Notes under the pieces: generated by a model
What the model saw: only the letters and a program-made list of their open reading frames with translations
The model's database searches: none
What the model was told of the DNA's origin: nothing
In this document: piece after piece, positions 1,597 through 6,877 of the stretch
How positions within the stretch are numbered: the stretch's first letter is position 1
How the letters are laid out: each line of letters begins with the position of its first letter
Program-made: the position numbers and the translations under genes
Source of the DNA: a virus
Taxonomy: Duplodnaviria > Heunggongvirae > Uroviricota > Caudoviricetes
Length of the DNA stretch: 7,431 nucleotides
Strand: one strand, 5' to 3'
IMG/VR virus record: IMGVR_UViG_2693429642_000010

Positions 1597-2267
1597 TGCT
1601 CCCCAAATACAAAACCAATTTCAGCCAGTGCCTCGTCCATTTTTTCGATGAACTCCGGCACCATCTCGTCAAAACTCGCCATGTACTTTTCATCCCGCTC
1701 AACCACGACATAATGCAGTCCTTCACGCTTCATACGCGGGTCATAGTTGGCAAAGTACCAGGCATCTTTTCGCGTCACCCACATGCTGTACTGCACCTGG
1801 GCCATGTAAGCCGACTTTATGGCCTCGAAACCACCGAGCCGGAACTTCATGAAATCCCGGGAGGTAAACGGGCATTTCAGCTCAAGGCCATTGCCGTCAC
1901 TGCATAAACCATCGGGAGAGCAGGCGGTGCGCATACTTTCGTCGCGATAGATGATCGGGGATTCAGTAACATTCACGCCGGAAGTGAATTCAAACAGGGT
2001 TCTGGCGTCGTTCTCGTACTGTTTTCCCCAGGCCAGCGCCTTAGCATTAACTTCCGGAGCCACACCGGTGCAAACCTCAGCCAGCAGGGTGTGGAAGTAG
2101 GACATTTTCATGTCAGGCCACTTCTTTCCTGAGCGGGGCTTTGCTATCACGTTGTGAACTTCTGAAGCGGTGATGACGCCGAGCCGTAATTTGTGCCATG
2201 CATCATCCCCCTGTTCGACAGCTCTCACGTCGATCCCGGTACGCTGCAGGATAATGTCCGGTGTCAT
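1587..2267 (-). CDS. exo: lambda-type exonuclease (Red alpha), 226 aa
   Basis: Translation [69 protein letters not shown]... matches my recollection of lambda Exo almost residue for residue. Same length (681 bp). Start overlaps the bet stop (ATGA at 2264-2267). Confidence 0.95.
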
Positions 2268-3049
2268 GCTGCCACCTTCTGCTCAGTGGCTTTCTGTTTC
2301 AGGAATCCAAGAGCTTTCACTGCTTCGGCCTGTGTCAGTTCTGACGATGCGCGAATGTCGCGGCGAAATATCTGGGAACAGAGCGGCAATAAGTCGTCAT
2401 CCCATGTTTTATCCCGGGCGATCAGCAGAGTGTTAATCTCCTGCATGGTTTCATCGTTAATCGGAGTGATGTCGCGTTCCGGCTGACGTTCTGCAGTGTA
2501 TGCGGTATTTTCGACAATGCGCTCGGCTTCATCCTTTTCATAGATACCAGCAAATCCGAAGGCCAGACGGGCACACTGAATCATGGCTTTATGCCGTAAC
2601 ATCCGTTTGGGATGCGACTGCCACGGTCCCGTGATTTCTCTGCCTTCGCGGGTTTTGAATGGTTCGCGGCGACATTCATCCATCCACTCGGTAACGCAGA
2701 TCGGATGATTGCGGTCCTTGCGGTAAATCCGGCATGTACAGGATTCATTGTCCTGCTCAAAGTCCATGCCATCAAACTGCTGGTTTTCATTGATGATGCG
2801 GGACCAGCCATCAACACCCACCACCGGAACGATGCCGTTCTGCTTATCAGGGAAGGCGTAAATTTCTTTCGTCCACGGATTAAGGCCGTACTGGTTGGCG
2901 ACGATCAACAATGCGATGAACTGCGCATCGCTGGCATCACCTTTAAATGCCGTCTGGCGAAGAGTGGTGATCAGTTCCTGTGGGTCGACAGAATCCATGC
3001 CGACACGTTCAGCCAGCTTCCCTGCCAGCGTTGCGAGTGCTGTACTCAT
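2264..3049 (-). CDS. bet: lambda-type single-strand annealing protein Beta (Red beta), 261 aa
   Basis: Translation [72 protein letters not shown]... matches lambda Bet as I recall it. 786 bp, as in lambda. Confidence 0.95.
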
Positions 3050-3054
3050 CCGTT

Positions 3055-3351
3055 TTATACCTCTGAATCAATATCAACCTGGTGGTGAGCAATGGTTTCA
3101 ACCATGTACCGGATGTGTTCTGCCATGCGCTCCTGAAACTCAACATCGTCATCAAACGCACGGGTAATGGCTTTTTTGCTGGCCCCGCAGCGTTGCAAAT
3201 GATCGATGCAGAGTGATTCAAACAGGTGCTGTGGAAGACCTTTTTCCATGTCGTCTGCCAGTTCTGACTCTTTCTCTTCACGGGCAATCTGCTGGTAGTG
3301 ACGTGCCCAGCTCAGAGCCTCAAGACGATCCTGAATGTAATAAGCGTTCAT
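3055..3351 (-). CDS. gam: RecBCD inhibitor Gam, short form only (98 aa)
   Basis: Translation [60 protein letters not shown]... matches lambda Gam from its internal Met onward. AGGAG Shine-Dalgarno 7 nt upstream (plus 3359-3363 reverse complement). In-frame stop upstream at 3406-3408 with no start codon between, so the long-form N-terminal extension is not encoded. Confidence 0.92.
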
Positions 3352-3426
3352 GGCTGAACTCCTGAAAATGGCTGTGAAAATATCGCCCGCGAAATGCCAG
3401 GCTGATTAGGAAAACAGGAAAGGGGA

Positions 3427-3633
3427 TTAGTGATTCAGGCCGTTACCGCGTCCGTCGAGAAAAACTTCCACGAGCAAATCACGGGTATAAGTGCGCTCGA
3501 TGCCGCGATGCAGATAAAGCCGTCCGCGTAAATTAGCTGATGCAGTCCAGGTACCATCTTTGTGTTTGACCAGCATTCCTGGCATGACCGCGCCGCGATT
3601 AACGGTCTGCGTTCCGTAATGTTGATGAACCAT
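3427..3633 (-). CDS. hypothetical small protein in the kil position (68 aa from the RBS-supported start; open frame extends to 3717 = 96 aa)
   Basis: ATG at 3633 has AGGAG 5 nt upstream (plus 3639-3643 reverse complement). The farther ATG at 3717 has only GAGG at 10 nt and adds a Pro/Gly-rich 28-aa extension. Sits immediately upstream of gam on the same strand, where lambdoid phages carry kil. No family recognised. Confidence 0.45.
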
Positions 3634-3904
3634 AAAAACTCCTGCCCGTAAGCTGGGCTGCTGAACATATAGAGACTTCTGCGCGTATTCAGGCGGTGGA
3701 TGGCCGCCGGTTGTCATAACTAAGCCGCCTCGTTGAAGCGACTAAGGTATGAAATGTTGAGTTGATTTCAGCTGGTCACACCGACGTTCACGCGTCCGTT
3801 TCACCCCTCGCACTCCCCGAAGCCTGCTGAAATTCAAACTGCGGATCTAAGCGGTCATCGCAACGGTGAATCAGGTAGTTGCCGTATCGTTGTGTTGTTG
3901 CGAT

Positions 3905-3990
3905 GAACCTATTTAAAACTATGGTTGTTTTATCGTCAACAACAAAAGTTGTTTTATTGGTTGTTTTAGATATAACTGGTTGTATTTAGG
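3905..3990 (-). promoter_or_regulatory. OL/pL-like leftward early promoter with operator repeats
   Basis: Minus strand reads TTGACG (-35, plus 3934-3939) - 16 nt - TTTAAA (-10, plus 3912-3917). Three TGGTTGT cores at 3922-3928, 3958-3964 and 3977-3983. The 17-mer AAAACTATGGTTGTTTT (3915-3931) lies between the -35 and -10 and is the exact reverse complement of a 17-mer at 4974-4990. Confidence 0.55.
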
Positions 3991-4080
3991 ATGGATTTAT
4001 TTTGTGACTTGAATCGCATAGCGATAACTGAAGCGAGGTTATGGTGGTTTTTTTAACGGTGTGTGTGATGAGGGGAGGGC

Positions 4081-4107
4081 AAAAGAAAACCCGGCACGGT
4101 GACCGGG
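4081..4107 (-). terminator. intrinsic terminator downstream of the repressor gene (t-imm-like)
   Basis: On the minus strand CCCGG-UCACCGUG-CCGGG (5-bp all-GC stem, plus 4090-4107) is followed by UUUUCUUUU (plus 4081-4089), about 120 nt past the repressor stop at 4229. Confidence 0.55.
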
Positions 4108-4228
4108 ATTCTTACGCCGTTAGGTAAAGATATTATTGCGGTGGCTTAATATTACTACCTAGAGCAAAGATAGGAATTAGTTCTTTACTGAATGAGCACA
4201 ATGCCCAGTTGATAATTTTTAATTGGTA

Positions 4229-4918
4229 CTACCCATGCTTCCTATATGTCTGCGGCATGCTCCCAATAACCTTACCGAAGATGAACACCCGGTTCATCTC
4301 GTCTTTCTCGATCGGGTCCCACGGTGAGTAGCTTTTGTTATCAGAGATGACCAGCAGCTTATCCTTCATCATTTGCAGGCGCTTTACATGGGCTGTGTCG
4401 TCGTACAGAAACGCATAGATACCATCACCGTCGAAAGATTTAACTGTGATATCAACGAACAGCAGATCACCTGGTTCGATCGTTCCTGACATGCTGTCAC
4501 CACGCACGTTAATGATGCGGATATTTTCCGCCTTCCTACCATCGAACATGTGACGAGCATCGTCAAACGAGTACTCAACCGAGCGTAGAACTTCTACAAA
4601 CTCACGGTTGATGACTCCCGGCCCAGCACTGACTTCTATATCAAGAACGTCAATCTTGAAGTATTTGGAATGGCTGACAGTTGATTGTATTGGTTGCACT
4701 ATACTGTCTGACATATTTCCAACGCCAGAAGATAACCATTCTGCGCGCACACCCAAAGCGTTCGCGATCTCCACGATTTTAGTTGTTTGATTAGCTTTCC
4801 CTGTTTCGATTTTCTGAATAGCAGCCTGGCTAACCCCGACCAAATCCCCAAGCGCCTTTTGTGTAAGGCCTCGCGCTAATCTGGCTTCTTTAAGTCTTTC
4901 TGAGAGTGTTGTTTTCAT
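4229..4918 (-). CDS. CI-type prophage repressor: N-terminal XRE-family HTH plus C-terminal S24 (LexA-like) autopeptidase domain, 229 aa
   Basis: MKTTLSERLKEARLARGLTQKALGDLVGVSQAAIQKIETGK... is a classic XRE helix-turn-helix. The C-terminal part has a candidate Ala-Gly autocleavage site (VSAGPG), the serine motif GDSMSG and the lysine motif HVKRL as in LexA/CI. Start at 4918 preferred over the upstream ATG at 4984, whose 22-codon extension has no RBS and would run through the operator region. Not lambda cI itself. Confidence 0.85.
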   Translation of the reverse strand: MKTTLSERLKEARLARGLTQKALGDLVGVSQAAIQKIETGKANQTTKIVEIANALGVRAEWLSSGVGNMSDSIVQPIQSTVSHSKYFKIDVLDIEVSAGPGVINREFVEVLRSVEYSFDDARHMFDGRKAENIRIINVRGDSMSGTIEPGDLLFVDITVKSFDGDGIYAFLYDDTAHVKRLQMMKDKLLVISDNKSYSPWDPIEKDEMNRVFIFGKVIGSMPQTYRKHG

Positions 4919-4924
4919 AGTCCA

Positions 4925-4995
4925 AATGTACAACCAAGGTTTTATTCCATCAAACGAAAATGGTTGTTGATTAAAAACAACCATAGTTTTAATCT
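4925..4995. promoter_or_regulatory. OR-like region with divergent pRM-like (leftward) and pR-like (rightward) promoters and three operator cores
   Basis: Cores: ACAACCA 4930-4936, TGGTTGT 4961-4967, ACAACCA 4977-4983. Rightward: TTGATT (4967-4972) - 15 nt - TTTAAT (4988-4993), with 17-mer AAAACAACCATAGTTTT (4974-4990) between them. Leftward: TTGATG (minus strand, plus 4948-4953) - 17 nt - TACATT (plus 4925-4930), ending 6 nt before the repressor ATG. Confidence 0.55.
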
Positions 4996-5022
4996 TGATT
5001 CAAATTAACCACGGAGGTTGTT

Positions 5023-5253
5023 ATGAACCCAGCTATCAAAACAGCGATCAATATCGTTGGTTCACAAAAGAAACTGGGCGCTGCTTGCGAAGTTTCACAG
5101 CAGGCCGTCTATAAGTGGCTTCACAACAAAGCAAAGGTATCCCCTGAACATGTCGGCAGCATTGTTACGGCTACTGGTGGAGTAGTGAAGGCATACCAGA
5201 TTCGCCCGGATCTTCCGGAGTTGTTTCCACACACCGAAAAGAACGCAGCTTAA
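5023..5253 (+). CDS. Cro-like small HTH regulator (76 aa), YdaS-type Cro analog
   Basis: GGAGG Shine-Dalgarno at 5013-5017, 5 nt before the ATG. Small basic protein with an HTH-like segment (QKKLGAACEVSQQAVYKWLHNK). Divergent from the repressor across the operator region. Not lambda Cro. Confidence 0.8.
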   Translation: MNPAIKTAINIVGSQKKLGAACEVSQQAVYKWLHNKAKVSPEHVGSIVTATGGVVKAYQIRPDLPELFPHTEKNAA

Positions 5254-5322
5254 ATTTCCATTTCACGCTCTTTAACAATAAGCAATCAACTTAACAGTCA
5301 ATTCAAACTAAAGGAGTCAATT

Positions 5323-5481
5323 ATGCAACCACTTACATACCAACAGACTAGCGGATTTAGCCCGACTGCGGTGATAAATCGTTCTCAAACAAAACAGGCG
5401 CCAGGCCACGAAAAATCCGTGATGCCGTTCGCGCCTGGTCGGCTGCAGATAATCAGGATGTTGTTGCCGCACTCATTGTGA
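5323..5481 (+). CDS. upstream ORF (52 aa), probably the frame-shifted N-terminal portion of the cII-position gene
   Basis: ATG at 5323 with a near-ideal AAGGAG Shine-Dalgarno (5311-5316) at 6 nt spacing. Reading frame stays open to TGA 5479-5481 and overlaps the alternative frame (open from 5361) for about 118 nt. Confidence 0.4.
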   Translation: MQPLTYQQTSGFSPTAVINRSQTKQAPGHEKSVMPFAPGRLQIIRMLLPHSL

Positions 5482-5861
5482 ATGAGTATCGGGAGCAGGG
5501 CGGCGGCACCATCGATTTCCCTGATGATGTCAGCCGTGCACGCCAGAAGCTGTTCCGCTTCCTCGATAACAAATTCGATTCTGAAAAATACCGAAATAAC
5601 GTGCGTGAACTGACCCCGGCAATTCTGGCGGTACTACCGCTGGAATATCGCGGCCACCTGGTTGAGCAGGATAGCTTCATGGCTCGGCTGGCTGAAATGG
5701 AAAAGGAACTCAGTGAGGCAAAGCAGGCGGTCATTCTCAACGCACCACGCCACCAGAAACTGAAGGAGATGAGTGAAGGCATTGTGTCGATGTTTCGTGT
5801 GGACCCGGATCTGGCTGGTCCATTAATGGCGATGGTTACCACCATGCTGGGGGCAATATGA
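5478..5861 (+). CDS. cII-position regulator, possibly YdaT-like (CII functional analog); C-terminal frame as called, 127 aa from GTG
   Basis: Long ORF ending in an ATGA overlap with the alternative O start at 5858. Its GTG start at 5478 has no Shine-Dalgarno and overlaps the upstream ORF stop (GTGA), and the frame is open back to 5361. Family assignment is from recollection and needs a profile search. Confidence 0.55.
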   Translation: MNEYREQGGGTIDFPDDVSRARQKLFRFLDNKFDSEKYRNNVRELTPAILAVLPLEYRGHLVEQDSFMARLAEMEKELSEAKQAVILNAPRHQKLKEMSEGIVSMFRVDPDLAGPLMAMVTTMLGAI

Positions 5862-5947
5862 CAGGTTCAGAAATGGCGAAAGCCGGTCTGCGGGAACAGA
5901 GCCGACTTTCAGGTGCAAATCGTAACGCACTCATTGCGGAAGGAATT

Positions 5948-6877
5948 ATGGCAAACACTGCTGAGATATTCAATTTTCCAGTGCCGGATGAGGCACAAAA
6001 GGAGCCGCGCGTGGCAGATCTCGATGATGGTTATACGCGCATTGCAAATGAGTTGCTGGAAGCTGTGATGCTGGCCGGATTAACACAGTACCAGCTTCTG
6101 GTCTTCCTGGCTGTCATGCGCAAAACATATGGCTTTAATAAAAAACTGGATTGGGTGAGCAACGAGCAACTTTCCGAGTTGACCGGGATATTGCCGCACA
6201 AGTGTTCTGCTGCAAAAAGTGTTCTGGTAAAGCGTGGGATTTTTATTCAGAGCGGGCGGAATATCGGCATTAATAATGTGGTCAGTGAATGGTCAACATT
6301 ACCCGAATCAGGTAAGAAAAATAAAGTTTACCTGAAAGAGGTAAATTTACCTGAATCAGGTAAGAAAAGTTTACCCAAATCAGGTAAAGACGTTTACCCG
6401 AATCAGGTAAACACAAAAGACAAACTAACAAAAGACAATATAAAACCTTTTTCGTCCGAGAATTCTGGCGAATCCTCTGACCAGTCAGAAAACGATCTTC
6501 CTGTGGTGAAACCGGATGCTGCAATTCAGAGCGGCAGCAAGTGGGGGACAGCAGAAGACCTGACCGCCGCAGAGTGGATGTTTGACATGGTGAAGACCAT
6601 CGCGCCATCAGCCAGAAAACCGAATTTTGCAGGGTGGGCTAACGATATCCGCCTGATGCGTGAACGTGACGGACGTAACCACCGCGACATGTGTGTACTG
6701 TTCCGCTGGGCATGCCAGGACAACTTCTGGTCCGGTAACGTGCTAAGTCCGGCCAAACTCCGCGACAAGTGGACCCAACTCGAAATCAACCGTAACAAGC
6801 AACAGGCTGGCGTGACAGCTAGCAAACCAAAACTCGACCTGACAAACACTGACTGGATTTACGGGGTGGATCTATGA
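5948..6877 (+). CDS. O: replication initiator protein O (309 aa from this start; alternative start at 5858 gives 339 aa)
   Basis: From MANTAEIFNFPVPDEAQKEPRVADLDDGY... the N-terminus aligns with the lambda O N-terminus as I recall it (MTNTAKILNF...NVADLDDGY...LRKTYG). C-terminal third (...FDMVKTIAPSARKPNFAGWANDIRLMRERDG...TDWIYGVDL) looks lambda-type. Iterons lie inside the gene. Stop overlaps the P start (ATGA at 6874-6877). Confidence 0.9.
   Translation: MANTAEIFNFPVPDEAQKEPRVADLDDGYTRIANELLEAVMLAGLTQYQLLVFLAVMRKTYGFNKKLDWVSNEQLSELTGILPHKCSAAKSVLVKRGIFIQSGRNIGINNVVSEWSTLPESGKKNKVYLKEVNLPESGKKSLPKSGKDVYPNQVNTKDKLTKDNIKPFSSENSGESSDQSENDLPVVKPDAAIQSGSKWGTAEDLTAAEWMFDMVKTIAPSARKPNFAGWANDIRLMRERDGRNHRDMCVLFRWACQDNFWSGNVLSPAKLRDKWTQLEINRNKQQAGVTASKPKLDLTNTDWIYGVDL
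6299..6412 (+). repeat. replication origin iterons (O-binding sites) inside gene O, followed by an A-rich region (6413-6452)
   Basis: Five copies of an approximately 19-bp unit TTACCyGAATCAGGTAAr starting at 6299, 6328 (degenerate), 6347, 6371 and 6394, each with dyad ends TTACC...GGTAA. They encode the repeated peptide PESGKK / PKSGK. Followed by ACACAAAAGACAAACTAACAAAAGACAATATAAAACC. Confidence 0.85.

Follow-up and report, generated by a model that had tools for sequence, protein, structure and literature searches.

Repressors of the phage 434 family, which join a helix-turn-helix (HTH) domain to an S24 domain, bind dyads as dimers. The operators of phage lambda are 17 bp in length and of the TATCACCGC type. 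In lambda, an OR of three sites separates the divergent genes cI and cro, and its PR-proximal part is duplicated in OL, which also has three sites; OL1 and OR1 are nearly identical (PMC8630535). OR1 occupies the spacer and -10 of PR, OR2 lies between the -35 elements at about -42 from PRM, OR3 lies over PRM, whose transcript is leaderless, and the S24 domain of cI has Ala-Gly, Ser, and Lys motifs (PMC8630535). Phage 434, whose operators, spacings, and promoter layout we took from its annotated record, has three 14-bp operators per side, in which the consensus half has ACAA at its four outermost positions and the center is A/T-rich and variable. In CP-933P, which has PaaR2, YdaS, and YdaT, experiments have established three operators on each side, the promoters PRM, PR, and PL, and a repressor gene that is leaderless (PMC8630535; PMC9986795), and PL copies PR (PMC8630535).

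Apart from the 17-bp operators, each of these features of lambda, with the promoters and the leaderless transcript as predictions, and each of those of 434 recurs, as does the general layout of CP-933P, in the 7,431-nucleotide stretch of Caudoviricetes DNA analyzed here (IMG/VR record IMGVR_UViG_2693429642_000010; hereafter, the window). We estimate a probability of about 80% that repeats on either side of its repressor gene belong to a lambdoid prophage switch with 434-like 14-bp operators, in which they form the control regions OL/PL and OR/PR-PRM.

Organization of the Early Region

The window is a lambdoid early region, in which exo, bet, and gam are directed leftward from PL/OL, followed by cI, OR, and the rightward genes cro, a cII-like gene, O, and P. 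The leftward operon beyond OL comprises a kil-like gene, gam, bet, and exo; compared with lambda, an N gene is unrecognized downstream of PL. The predicted PL leader (3718-3904, minus strand), folded as RNA in search of a put- or nut-like structure, is unremarkable (z = 0.2), and no Rfam family reaches its gathering score in the whole window.

The cI-like gene (4229-4918, minus strand) encodes a repressor of 229 amino acids with a 434-repressor-like N-terminal HTH and a C-terminal S24 (LexA-type) self-cleaving domain (Pfam HTH_3, 5.7e-13; Peptidase_S24, 1.2e-18). Among PDB chains searched with phmmer, the N-terminal domain matches the 434 repressor (1per_L, 5.6e-9, residues 5-68, 64 residues), cI also matches the designed 434 variant dh434 (1.8e-9), and the C-terminal part matches UmuD' (1e-4). 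The 434 repressor is the closest solved relative of the N-terminal domain, which is of the 434/Xre type and lacks the N-terminal arm of lambda cI. Self-cleavage motifs A98-G99, G-D-S142-M, and K179 can be read from the translation. The start at 4918 is preferred because two other records annotate a gene of 690 bp, relatives all begin with MKTTL, and the alignment to the 434 repressor starts at its residue 5. A 251-amino acid ORF from 4984, annotated as cI in PhiR34_1, was dropped in its favor; this ORF would start inside OR1 and cross the operators. The rex genes of lambda are absent. The cI transcript likely ends at an intrinsic-terminator-like hairpin with a T-run (4090-4107, minus strand; six pairs, five of them G-C; tail TTTTCTTTTG), which follows the cI stop at a distance of about 120 nt.

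The cro gene (5023-5253, plus strand) encodes 76 amino acids with an HTH of the YdaS/P22-Cro type (Pfam YdaS_toxin, 4e-17; P22_Cro, weakly), and the cII-like gene is of the YdaT type (YdaT_toxin, 3.7e-30). Downstream of PR, the window thus resembles the CP-933P/Rac type in having a Cro of the YdaS type and a cII analogue of the YdaT type, whereas Cro and cII of lambda belong to families unrelated to YdaS and YdaT, and Cro of 434 is a paralogue of cI. The CP-933P/Rac type differs in having PaaR2 or RacR rather than a self-cleaving S24 repressor and in carrying toxin-antitoxin cargo that is absent here, and the operator consensus of CP-933P, GTTTAGTAA (PMC8630535), is unrelated to the ACAAC-N4-GTTGT found here. 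In the window, ydaT is split by a 1-bp deletion. Only matches with two or three mismatches were found to the YdaT site TTGATT-N6-AATCAA, the best placed of them at 5272-5289, between cro and ydaT, where the matches are weak and have three mismatches. The O gene carries five replication iterons, TTACCYGAATCAGGTAA, at 6294-6415.

Inverted Repeats and Candidate Operators of the Two Control Regions

An earlier note on this DNA read the two regions as pL-like and pR-like, with promoters that face outward and serve the early operons. Our analysis agrees; the regions lie on either side of the cI-like repressor gene and are homologous to each other. The sequence AAAACTATGGTTGTTTT at 3915-3931 has its exact reverse complement at 4974-4990, as claimed, but the shared block, given as 17 bp, is 19 nt at full length. 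An inverted-repeat search places its arms at 3913-3931, containing OL1 and part of the PL -10, and 4974-4992, with 100% complementarity. When the two intergenic regions were shuffled 2,000 times with composition matched, no exact inverted repeat longer than 14 nt arose. Once reverse-complemented, the left region aligns over ∼38 bp (GTTGTTGA..AAAACAACCATAGTTTTAA) with one 1-nt indel, in keeping with the ∼35 bp previously proposed, and a looser alignment extends over the entire array of three sites. The exact 17-bp identity is true of the window but hinges on one base specific to this genome. Position 3923 is G in the window and A in 79 of 80 close relatives, where OL1 and OR1 are therefore one central base apart.

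Both regions have three candidate repressor sites, as the earlier note recognized in likening them to lambda OL1-3 and OR1-3. To follow the sites across genera, we compared seven relatives that share the recognition helix of cI (Kosakonia, two Klebsiella, Enterobacter, two Providencia, and Symbiopectobacterium), the window being the eighth genome. A consensus scan of 3300-5400 returned no promoters at its threshold; hence, promoters were assigned from position and conservation. The predicted hexamers match the consensus at 7 of 12 positions for PR, 8 of 12 for PRM, and 9 of 12 for PL, the last without the A at -10 position 2.

In the right region, the three 14-bp candidate operators have centers 23 and 24 bp apart and overlap the predicted hexamers of PR and PRM. 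OR1 (4977-4990, ACAACCATAGTTTT) is in the PR spacer and touches the -10. OR2 (4954-4967, ACGAAAATGGTTGT, reverse complement ACAACCATTTTCGT) has two mismatches and pairs a consensus half with an off-consensus half, TTCGT, that is invariant in all eight genomes; its center is 42.5 bp upstream of the predicted PRM start. OR3 (4930-4943, ACAACCAAGGTTTT) is in the PRM spacer. The predicted PR -35 (4967-4972, plus strand) is TTGATT in the window and TTGACT in 79 of 83 close relatives. The putative PR -10 (4990-4995, plus strand; TAATCT) is a weak match to the consensus (3/6), assigned from its conserved position, at which relatives have TATTCT, TATTAT, or TAATAT. The PR start is predicted near A5002. 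On the minus strand, the putative PRM -35 (4948-4953, TTGATG) directly adjoins OR2 and is TTGATG or TTGAAT in seven of eight genomes (TTGCCG in L135). The putative PRM -10 (4925-4930, TACATT) ends 6 nt before the cI ATG, and TA(C/A/T)(A/C)TT is found at this distance in the eight genomes (7 nt in Providencia L087 and L136). This position predicts a leaderless cI mRNA, and no Shine-Dalgarno is conserved ahead of the cI ATG across the eight genomes; in contrast, cI of 434 has a leader and a ribosome-binding site.

A weak and uncertain fourth site may lie at 5008-5021 (ACCACGGAGGTTGT, one mismatch), about +7 to +20 of the predicted PR start and overlapping the cro Shine-Dalgarno. Its pattern, AC-N-AC/AAAAC-N4-GT-N-GT, is present in seven of eight genomes, with a match to the strict consensus in the two Providencia genomes. 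We regard a right region of four rather than three sites, possibly with partial cross-talk with the 434 repressor, as rather unlikely although deserving of some weight. The recognition helices differ, but the exact fit of OL2 to ACAA-N6-TTGT, the consensus of 434, makes such cross-talk conceivable. If the fourth site is true, it would add a layer of cro control that is absent from lambda and 434.

In the left region, OL1 (3915-3928, AAAACTATGGTTGT, reverse complement ACAACCATAGTTTT) is in the PL spacer and overlaps the -10. Its half-sites are kept in all seven genomes with an OL, while its center varies (cata, tatg, tttg, tata). OL2 (3939-3952, ACAACAAAAGTTGT), centered 24 bp from OL1, has no mismatches and perfectly symmetric half-sites, and reads ACAAC-N4-GTTGT in seven of seven genomes. 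In an alignment of the left region of 80 close relatives, its half-sites have a single change, C3940A, which in one locus yields the allowed AAAAC form, and its center also has one, A3945T, in two loci. OL3 (3970-3983, ATATAACTGGTTGT, reverse complement ACAACCAGTTATAT) is a weak candidate with one consensus half and one A/T-rich half. ACAACCA and TAWAW are nevertheless kept there in all seven genomes that have an OL. The OL3 and OL2 centers are 31 bp apart in five enterobacterial genomes, including the window, and 42 bp apart in two Providencia; spacings of L135 and L136 were counted from the printed sequence. The predicted PL -35 (3934-3939, minus strand; TTGACG) overlaps OL2 by 1 nt, and tgac follows OL2 in seven of seven genomes. 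Together with the predicted -10, read from the sequence as TTAAAT (3911-3916, minus strand), it conforms to the pattern TTGAC(G/T/A)-17-TT(A/T)AAT kept in the seven genomes. The PL start is predicted near A3904, in a conserved CATCG context.

Recognition Unit of the Repressor

On the model of the earlier note, the repressor would recognize six independent TGGTTGT cores, three on each side, with the shared 17-bp block as operator. The count and layout of the cores hold (3922+, 3958+, and 3977+ at left; 4930-, 4961+, and 4977- at right). TGGTTGT is strongly enriched and clustered; its seven copies in the window compare with 1.16 expected, a number reached in 1 of 200 shuffles, and six of the seven fall in two ∼70-bp regions. 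Five of these six also overlap sites that are operators if the unit is a 14-bp dyad, A(C/A)AAC-N4-GTT(G/T)T. It is the role of TGGTTGT as the unit that we consider improbable. Orthologous sites have TAGTTGT, CAGTTGT, or AAGTTGT, so its TG is unconserved, and OL1 itself is TAGTTGT in 79 of 80 close relatives. A partner half-site is 4 bp away at every site, as fits the binding of a dimer to a dyad. OL2, the best left site and one that was overlooked, lacks the 7-mer (ACAACAAAAGTTGT) despite its perfect conservation in seven genomes.

The copy at 3958-3964 (plus strand), proposed as an operator, is probably not one. It is unconserved in five of six distant relatives (absent or degenerate in L084, L085, L087, L135, and L136) and no other stretch is as polymorphic in close relatives, four of its seven positions being variable compared with 5 of 60 half-site positions (Fisher p = 0.005). 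A placement of OL3 at 3950-3963, which would include this core, was dropped for 3970-3983 on the basis of conservation and the 31-bp spacing.

The strict form of the dyad, A[AC]AAC....GTT[GT]T, has four matches in the window compared with 0.047 expected, a number reached in none of 2,000 shuffles, and all four are inside the two control regions. OR2 is recovered once two mismatches are allowed; both OR2 and OL3 have one consensus half each. We suggest that the 14-bp dyad rather than TGGTTGT is most likely the recognition unit and that the TG sits in the variable center of the dyad, which is probably uncontacted.

It is also very unlikely that the 25-bp OR palindrome, ATGGTTGT-N9-ACAACCAT (4960-4984), is a functional element in its own right, either as one large site for Cro or another factor or as an RNA or DNA hairpin or terminator. 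A terminator scan lists it as terminator-like on both strands, yet its stem has only three G-C pairs, and it is upstream of both predicted starts and would be transcribed only by PRE-type read-through. The halves of OR1 and OR2 that face each other seem to vary together (TGG/CCA in the window, TAG/CTA in Providencia, and GTTTT/AAAAC in Symbiopectobacterium), but the extended pairing is broken in L085 and L135 (TAG/CCA). With some 16 bp between their centers, its half-sites point to opposite sides of the helix, a poor fit for a simple dimer, and OL has no equivalent. An inverted repeat of this kind follows automatically from two neighboring near-consensus half-sites.

Conservation across Genera and Relation to 434 and Lambda

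What is observed of this switch is its sequence anatomy, homology, cross-genus conservation, and co-variation. The seven relatives have the cI helix SQAAIQKIETG in common and are 54-84% identical in the N-terminal domain of cI. All seven retain OR1-3, in which the half-sites are conserved and the central tetranucleotide takes nine different forms, and OL1-3 are kept in all six in which an OL was found, a conservation of short A/T-rich words that carries limited weight because the relatives are few (eight genomes) and non-independent. Strict matches in the 5-6 kb loci of the relatives are confined to OR, the adjoining site at the cro Shine-Dalgarno, or OL. The motif and the helix occur together in eight of eight genomes, and the strict motif is upstream of cI in none of 26 relatives with other helices, 434 included. 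On this strict co-occurrence with one recognition helix across genera, a single repressor for both operons, as first proposed, is the best reading. Among 83 close relatives, changes fall at 5 of 60 half-site positions, 7 of 24 center positions, and 33 of 99 other intergenic positions (Fisher p = 2.4e-4). Exactly the seven relatives with the same cI helix have a cro that is 66-86% identical, and we judge cro to be inherited jointly with the same cI and operators. The helix of Cro, SQQAV, begins like that of cI, SQAAI.

Given these patterns, we can assign hardly any weight to the repeats having arisen by chance, common as short repeats are in A/T-rich regions such as these, or to their serving another DNA-binding function as integrase arm sites, nucleoid-protein sites, or replication iterons. 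The statistics are strongly against chance, cI lies between the sites, which overlap promoter-like hexamers pointing in opposite directions, and the motif accompanies one cI recognition helix from genus to genus while being absent where the helix is another; the replication iterons are elsewhere and differ in sequence.

The sites are indeed unlike lambda operators, as previously stated; those are 17 bp rather than 14 bp and unrelated in sequence, and none of their type is present in the control-region sequence that was read. A known family does match, however, namely that of 434. OL2 fits ACAA-N6-TTGT exactly, and every other site in the window pairs an ACAA half with a half that is AAAA or weaker. 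Operator centers are 22 and 23 bp apart in OR of 434 compared with 23 and 24 bp in the window, and 23 and 31 bp apart in OL compared with 24 and 31 bp, the distance from OL3 to OL2 being 31 bp in both. The repressors share a Gln at position 2 of the recognition helix and an S24 C-terminal domain. In contrast, the recognition helices differ at four positions (TQQSIEQ in 434; SQAAIQK here), and the half-sites here invariably have C at position 5, a base that none of the 12 half-sites of 434 has there, and may have A at position 2. The two -35 elements of 434 overlap and its OR1 is over the PR start, whereas placement of the predicted promoters at OR here is lambda-like. With recognition helix and half-site base 5 both different, and the strict motif absent from OR of 434, the immunity type is, as judged from sequence, different from imm434.

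Proposed Switch

Binding, occupancy order, cooperativity, promoter starts, and activation are predicted parts of the switch. Dimers of the 229-amino acid cI would bind the 14-bp dyads, reading the outer five bp of each half-site directly and leaving the central four uncontacted; the roles of residues in the recognition helix are extrapolated from structures of 434. OR1, in the PR spacer, and OR2, which abuts the PR -35, would jointly repress PR, which is predicted to drive cro, the cII-like gene, O, and P. From its center at about -42 from PRM, OR2 would also be positioned for activation of PRM, the putative source of the leaderless cI mRNA. OR3 would shut off PRM when the repressor is abundant. 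On the left, OL1, over the -10, and OL2, against the -35, would jointly repress PL and thereby the kil-like gene, gam, bet, and exo, with the weak OL3 31 bp farther out than OL2. The YdaS-type Cro may use the same sites in a different order of preference, and self-cleavage of cI stimulated by RecA would induce the prophage.

Distribution and Significance

The immunity type is present in at least 1,049 of 5,426 complete E. coli genomes (at least 19%) and in at least 550 IMG/VR contigs. Its repressor N-terminal domain is found at 100% identity in only six phage records of the collection, all recently deposited, and the next-best phage record, that of a Klebsiella phage, is at 74%. Searchable literature on lambdoid immunity and YdaS/YdaT yielded related systems but not this immunity type, nor any operator map, binding, footprint, or transcript data for it; the exact operator strings occur only in an unrelated fungal paper. 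The type thus seems to be common in E. coli yet never studied at the bench.

The findings leave the lambda paradigm unchallenged, and their value is practical. The map of operators and promoters, with its comparative support, points to bases worth mutating and makes superinfection immunity between such prophages predictable. The repressor is a natural member of the 434 family whose specificity is altered, with SQAAIQK as its helix and C at position 5 of the half-site, and it could be of use as an orthogonal genetic switch or in work on specificity.

Results

Two control regions flank cI, at ∼3905–3990 on the left and 4919–5022 on the right, and judging from sequence, the recognition unit in both is a 14-bp dyad, A(C/A)AAC-N4-GTT(G/T)T. 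The earlier note described six TGGTTGT cores, three per side. That count holds (seven in the window versus 1.16 expected, six within the two control regions), but every copy is paired with AAAAC or ACAAC, and its initial TG belongs to a dyad center that varies across relatives. In the 7.4 kb, the strict motif is confined to OR1 (4977–4990, ACAAC-CATA-GTTTT), OR3 (4930–4943, ACAAC-CAAG-GTTTT), OL1 (3915–3928, AAAAC-TATG-GTTGT), and OL2 (3939–3952, ACAAC-AAAA-GTTGT), the last without TGGTTGT; 0.047 matches are expected and four were reached in 0 of 2,000 shuffles. OR2 (4954–4967, ACGAA-AATG-GTTGT) is found when two mismatches are allowed, and a 25-bp palindrome at 4960–4984 is accounted for by OR1 and OR2 having consensus halves that face each other. 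A fourth operator-like sequence, ACCACGGAGGTTGT (5008–5021), departs from the operator consensus at one position, overlaps the cro Shine-Dalgarno, and lies 31 bp from OR1, center to center. Its equivalent is present in seven of eight genomes with the window's cI helix, as a strict-consensus match in two Providencia genomes. It may be a weak extra operator, or a by-product or coincidence of ribosome-binding-site constraints.

The shared 17-mer (3915–3931) and its reverse complement (4974–4990) are confirmed as parts of a 19-nt exact inverted repeat (3913–3931/4974–4992); the longest arising by chance is at most 14 nt (2,000 composition-matched shuffles). The reverse-complemented left side aligns well with the right over ∼38 bp, interrupted by a single 1-nt indel; a looser alignment spans the entire operator array. 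Position 3923 is A in 79 of 80 close relatives, which gives OL1 and OR1 a one-base difference there; their exact identity is peculiar to the window's genome. Two control positions in this genome carry infrequent alleles: position 3923 in OL1, with its rare G, and position 4971 in the predicted PR −35, where TTGATT (4967–4972) replaces the TTGACT of 79 of 83 close relatives, which is identical to that of lambda PR.

The strongest evidence that cI reads the candidate sites is that its recognition helix and the motif co-vary. Scanning a single genome for each species and searching phage records at the protein level yielded seven relatives whose cI N-terminal domains are 54–84% identical and retain the helix SQAAIQKIETG: Kosakonia (L084), Klebsiella grimontii (L085), Enterobacter (L086), Providencia (L087), Symbiopectobacterium (L089), Klebsiella phage ST101-KPC2phi6.1 (L135), and Providencia phage PSTCR7lys (L136). 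Positions of OR1, OR2, and OR3 are equal in all seven, and the OL1–OL2 distance is 24 bp, as in the window, in the six with OL found. The five-base halves are kept while the central four bases are free to vary (tatg, cata, tata, ctta, cttg, caca, catg, tgaa, cgta), and all strict-motif matches in these 5–6 kb loci are in OR, the cro Shine-Dalgarno site, or OL. Upstream of cI in 26 relatives with other recognition helices, 434 included, the strict motif is absent. Cro is 66–86% identical in these seven relatives and no others, and its presumed recognition helix starts SQQAV versus SQAAI in cI; this co-occurrence and likeness would fit cI and Cro sharing sites. A larger second group of enterobacterial cI with helix AQPTIWRLTSG (L088–L106) has other repeated sites upstream, of the AATAGCAATGCGTATTG/CAATACGCAAGCGTAT type, and a Cro with a matching helix, AQPTVWRW, and is apparently another coherent immunity type.

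Polymorphism agrees with the dyad reading across 83 near-identical loci drawn from phage records and IMG/VR. Variable positions number 5 of 60 in half-sites, 7 of 24 in site centers, 33 of 99 in other intergenic sequence, and 4 of 7 in the TGGTTGT at 3958–3964. Half-sites differ from other intergenic positions (Fisher, P = 2.4e-4), centers (P = 0.03), and the 3958 copy (P = 0.005), with P values indicative rather than exact because the loci are related. All five half-site changes are confined to one locus each, and C3940A yields the allowed AAAAC form.

Assignments of OL1 and OL2 are clear. For a third left site, the TGGTTGT at 3958–3964 is degenerate or missing in L084, L085, L087, L135, and L136 and kept only in L086. 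At 3970–3983, ACAACCA and an A/T-rich half (TAWAW) are kept in all seven genomes with OL, 31 bp from OL2 in five enterobacterial genomes, window included, and 42 bp in two Providencia genomes, a gain of 11 bp, or about one helical turn. Accordingly, we take 3970–3983 as a weak OL3.

Three promoters are predicted: PL (minus strand; TTGACG 3939–3934, 17-nt spacer, TTAAAT 3916–3911), starting near 3904 in a conserved CATCG context; PR (plus strand; TTGATT 4967–4972, 17-nt spacer, TAATCT 4990–4995), starting near 5002 and with TATTCT, TATTAT, or TAATAT at the −10 position in relatives; and PRM (minus strand; TTGATG 4953–4948, 17-nt spacer, TACATT 4930–4925). All are weak matches that a consensus promoter scan left uncalled. 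OR1 and OL1 would lie in promoter spacers, touching the predicted −10 elements, and OR2 and OL2 would adjoin the predicted −35 elements. The OR2 center would be 42.5 bp upstream of the predicted PRM start, and OR3 would fill the PRM spacer. From the predicted PRM −10 to the cI ATG is 6 nt in six of eight genomes, window included, and 7 nt in two Providencia, and the eight genomes compared have no conserved Shine-Dalgarno before the ATG; a leaderless cI mRNA is predicted. Lambda cI and CP-933P paaR2 likewise have leaderless mRNAs (PMC8630535). The PhiR34_1 record annotates a 251-aa cI (L001 4530–5285, window 4229–4984) whose ATG falls within OR1. The 229-aa start at 4918 is favored by homologues and by alignment to 434, and the record's start is probably wrong.

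The ORF list and Pfam scan identify the window as a lambdoid early region. The minus strand carries exo (1587–2267), bet (2264–3049), gam (3055–3351), a 96-aa kil-like ORF (3427–3717), and the 229-aa cI repressor (4229–4918; Pfam HTH_3 5.7e-13, Peptidase_S24 1.2e-18). The plus strand carries a 76-aa Cro of the YdaS family (5023–5253; ORF list, Pfam), a YdaT-type cII analogue (5323–5861), O (5858–6877), and then P. E. coli phages PhiR34_1 and Turner are 99.6% identical to window 3700–5300, and in both records the matching region bears annotations of cI, Cro, cII, O, and P. The palindromic iteron TTACCYGAATCAGGTAA occurs five times within O (6294–6415); these repeats are presumed to be the replication origin, a lambda-like arrangement. 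No gene for an N-like antiterminator was recognized from PL to the kil-like ORF, and the 187-nt PL leader (3718–3904, minus strand) matches no Rfam family and is predicted to fold in an ordinary way (z = 0.2).

In the window, the A-run at 5412–5416 is one A shorter than the A7 of PhiR34_1 and IdasGreatGrand, and this 1-bp deletion breaks the YdaT-type gene into two ORFs, of 52 and 127 aa. The deletion could reflect a defective prophage, phase-like slippage, or sequencing error. Between cro and ydaT, TTAACAATAAGCAATCAA (5272–5289) has three mismatches to the YdaT site TTGATT-N6-AATCAA and matches the position of CP-933P's reported YdaT site; it is a candidate for PRE-type control. In the window, the interval from the cI stop to OL (3990–4228) is nearly empty (∼120 nt and a terminator at 4090–4107). 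This slot holds a lipoprotein gene in PhiR26_1 (L002 3415–3795), two unknown genes in IdasGreatGrand (L003 1560–2988), and rexA and rexB in the Klebsiella phage (L135 3449–4732); placed like lambda rex, it is a site of variable cargo.

Discussion

The closest solved structure to the cI N-terminal domain is the 434 repressor (5.6e-9). Operators of 434, read from annotated record OL657226, are 14-bp ACAA-N6-TTGT, which OL2 fits exactly, and center spacings are similar (434, OR 22/23 and OL 23/31 bp; window, 23/24 and 24/31). However, half-site position 5 is never C in 434 and always C in the window, the helices differ at four positions (TQQSIEQ versus SQAAIQK), and the window's Cro is of YdaS type; the window's switch is not 434 immunity. 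Its OR promoters have the lambda placement, in which the two −35 elements lie on either side of OR2, whereas in 434 these elements overlap and OR1 lies over the PR start. In 434 co-crystal structures, Gln28 contacts A1; the equivalent Gln31 of the window's cI is conserved. It is speculation that Lys36 (Gln33 in 434) could contact the G paired with C5. The experimentally established PaaR2/YdaS/YdaT switch of CP-933P follows the same logic, though its repressor is different and its operators are unrelated.

The cI gene is mosaic, with a junction at ∼4681 (residue ∼79). The C-terminal (S24) two-thirds are 95–97% identical to those of Lambda_4C10, 4A7, D2, and Perceval, phages whose cI N-terminal domain differs. 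The N-terminal domain, OR, and cro occur together in only six phage records. The DNA-binding module has therefore been swapped through recombination near the linker.

The operator strings are absent from relevant papers in the searchable literature, which includes few subscription journals, and earlier work may exist. Only six recent phage records have the window's cI N-terminal domain at 100% identity, and the domain is found in at least 550 IMG/VR contigs. Region 3880–5030 is present at ≥80% coverage in 1,049 of 5,426 complete E. coli genomes. This is an ordinary lambdoid switch, of an immunity type that is apparently uncharacterized and is widespread.
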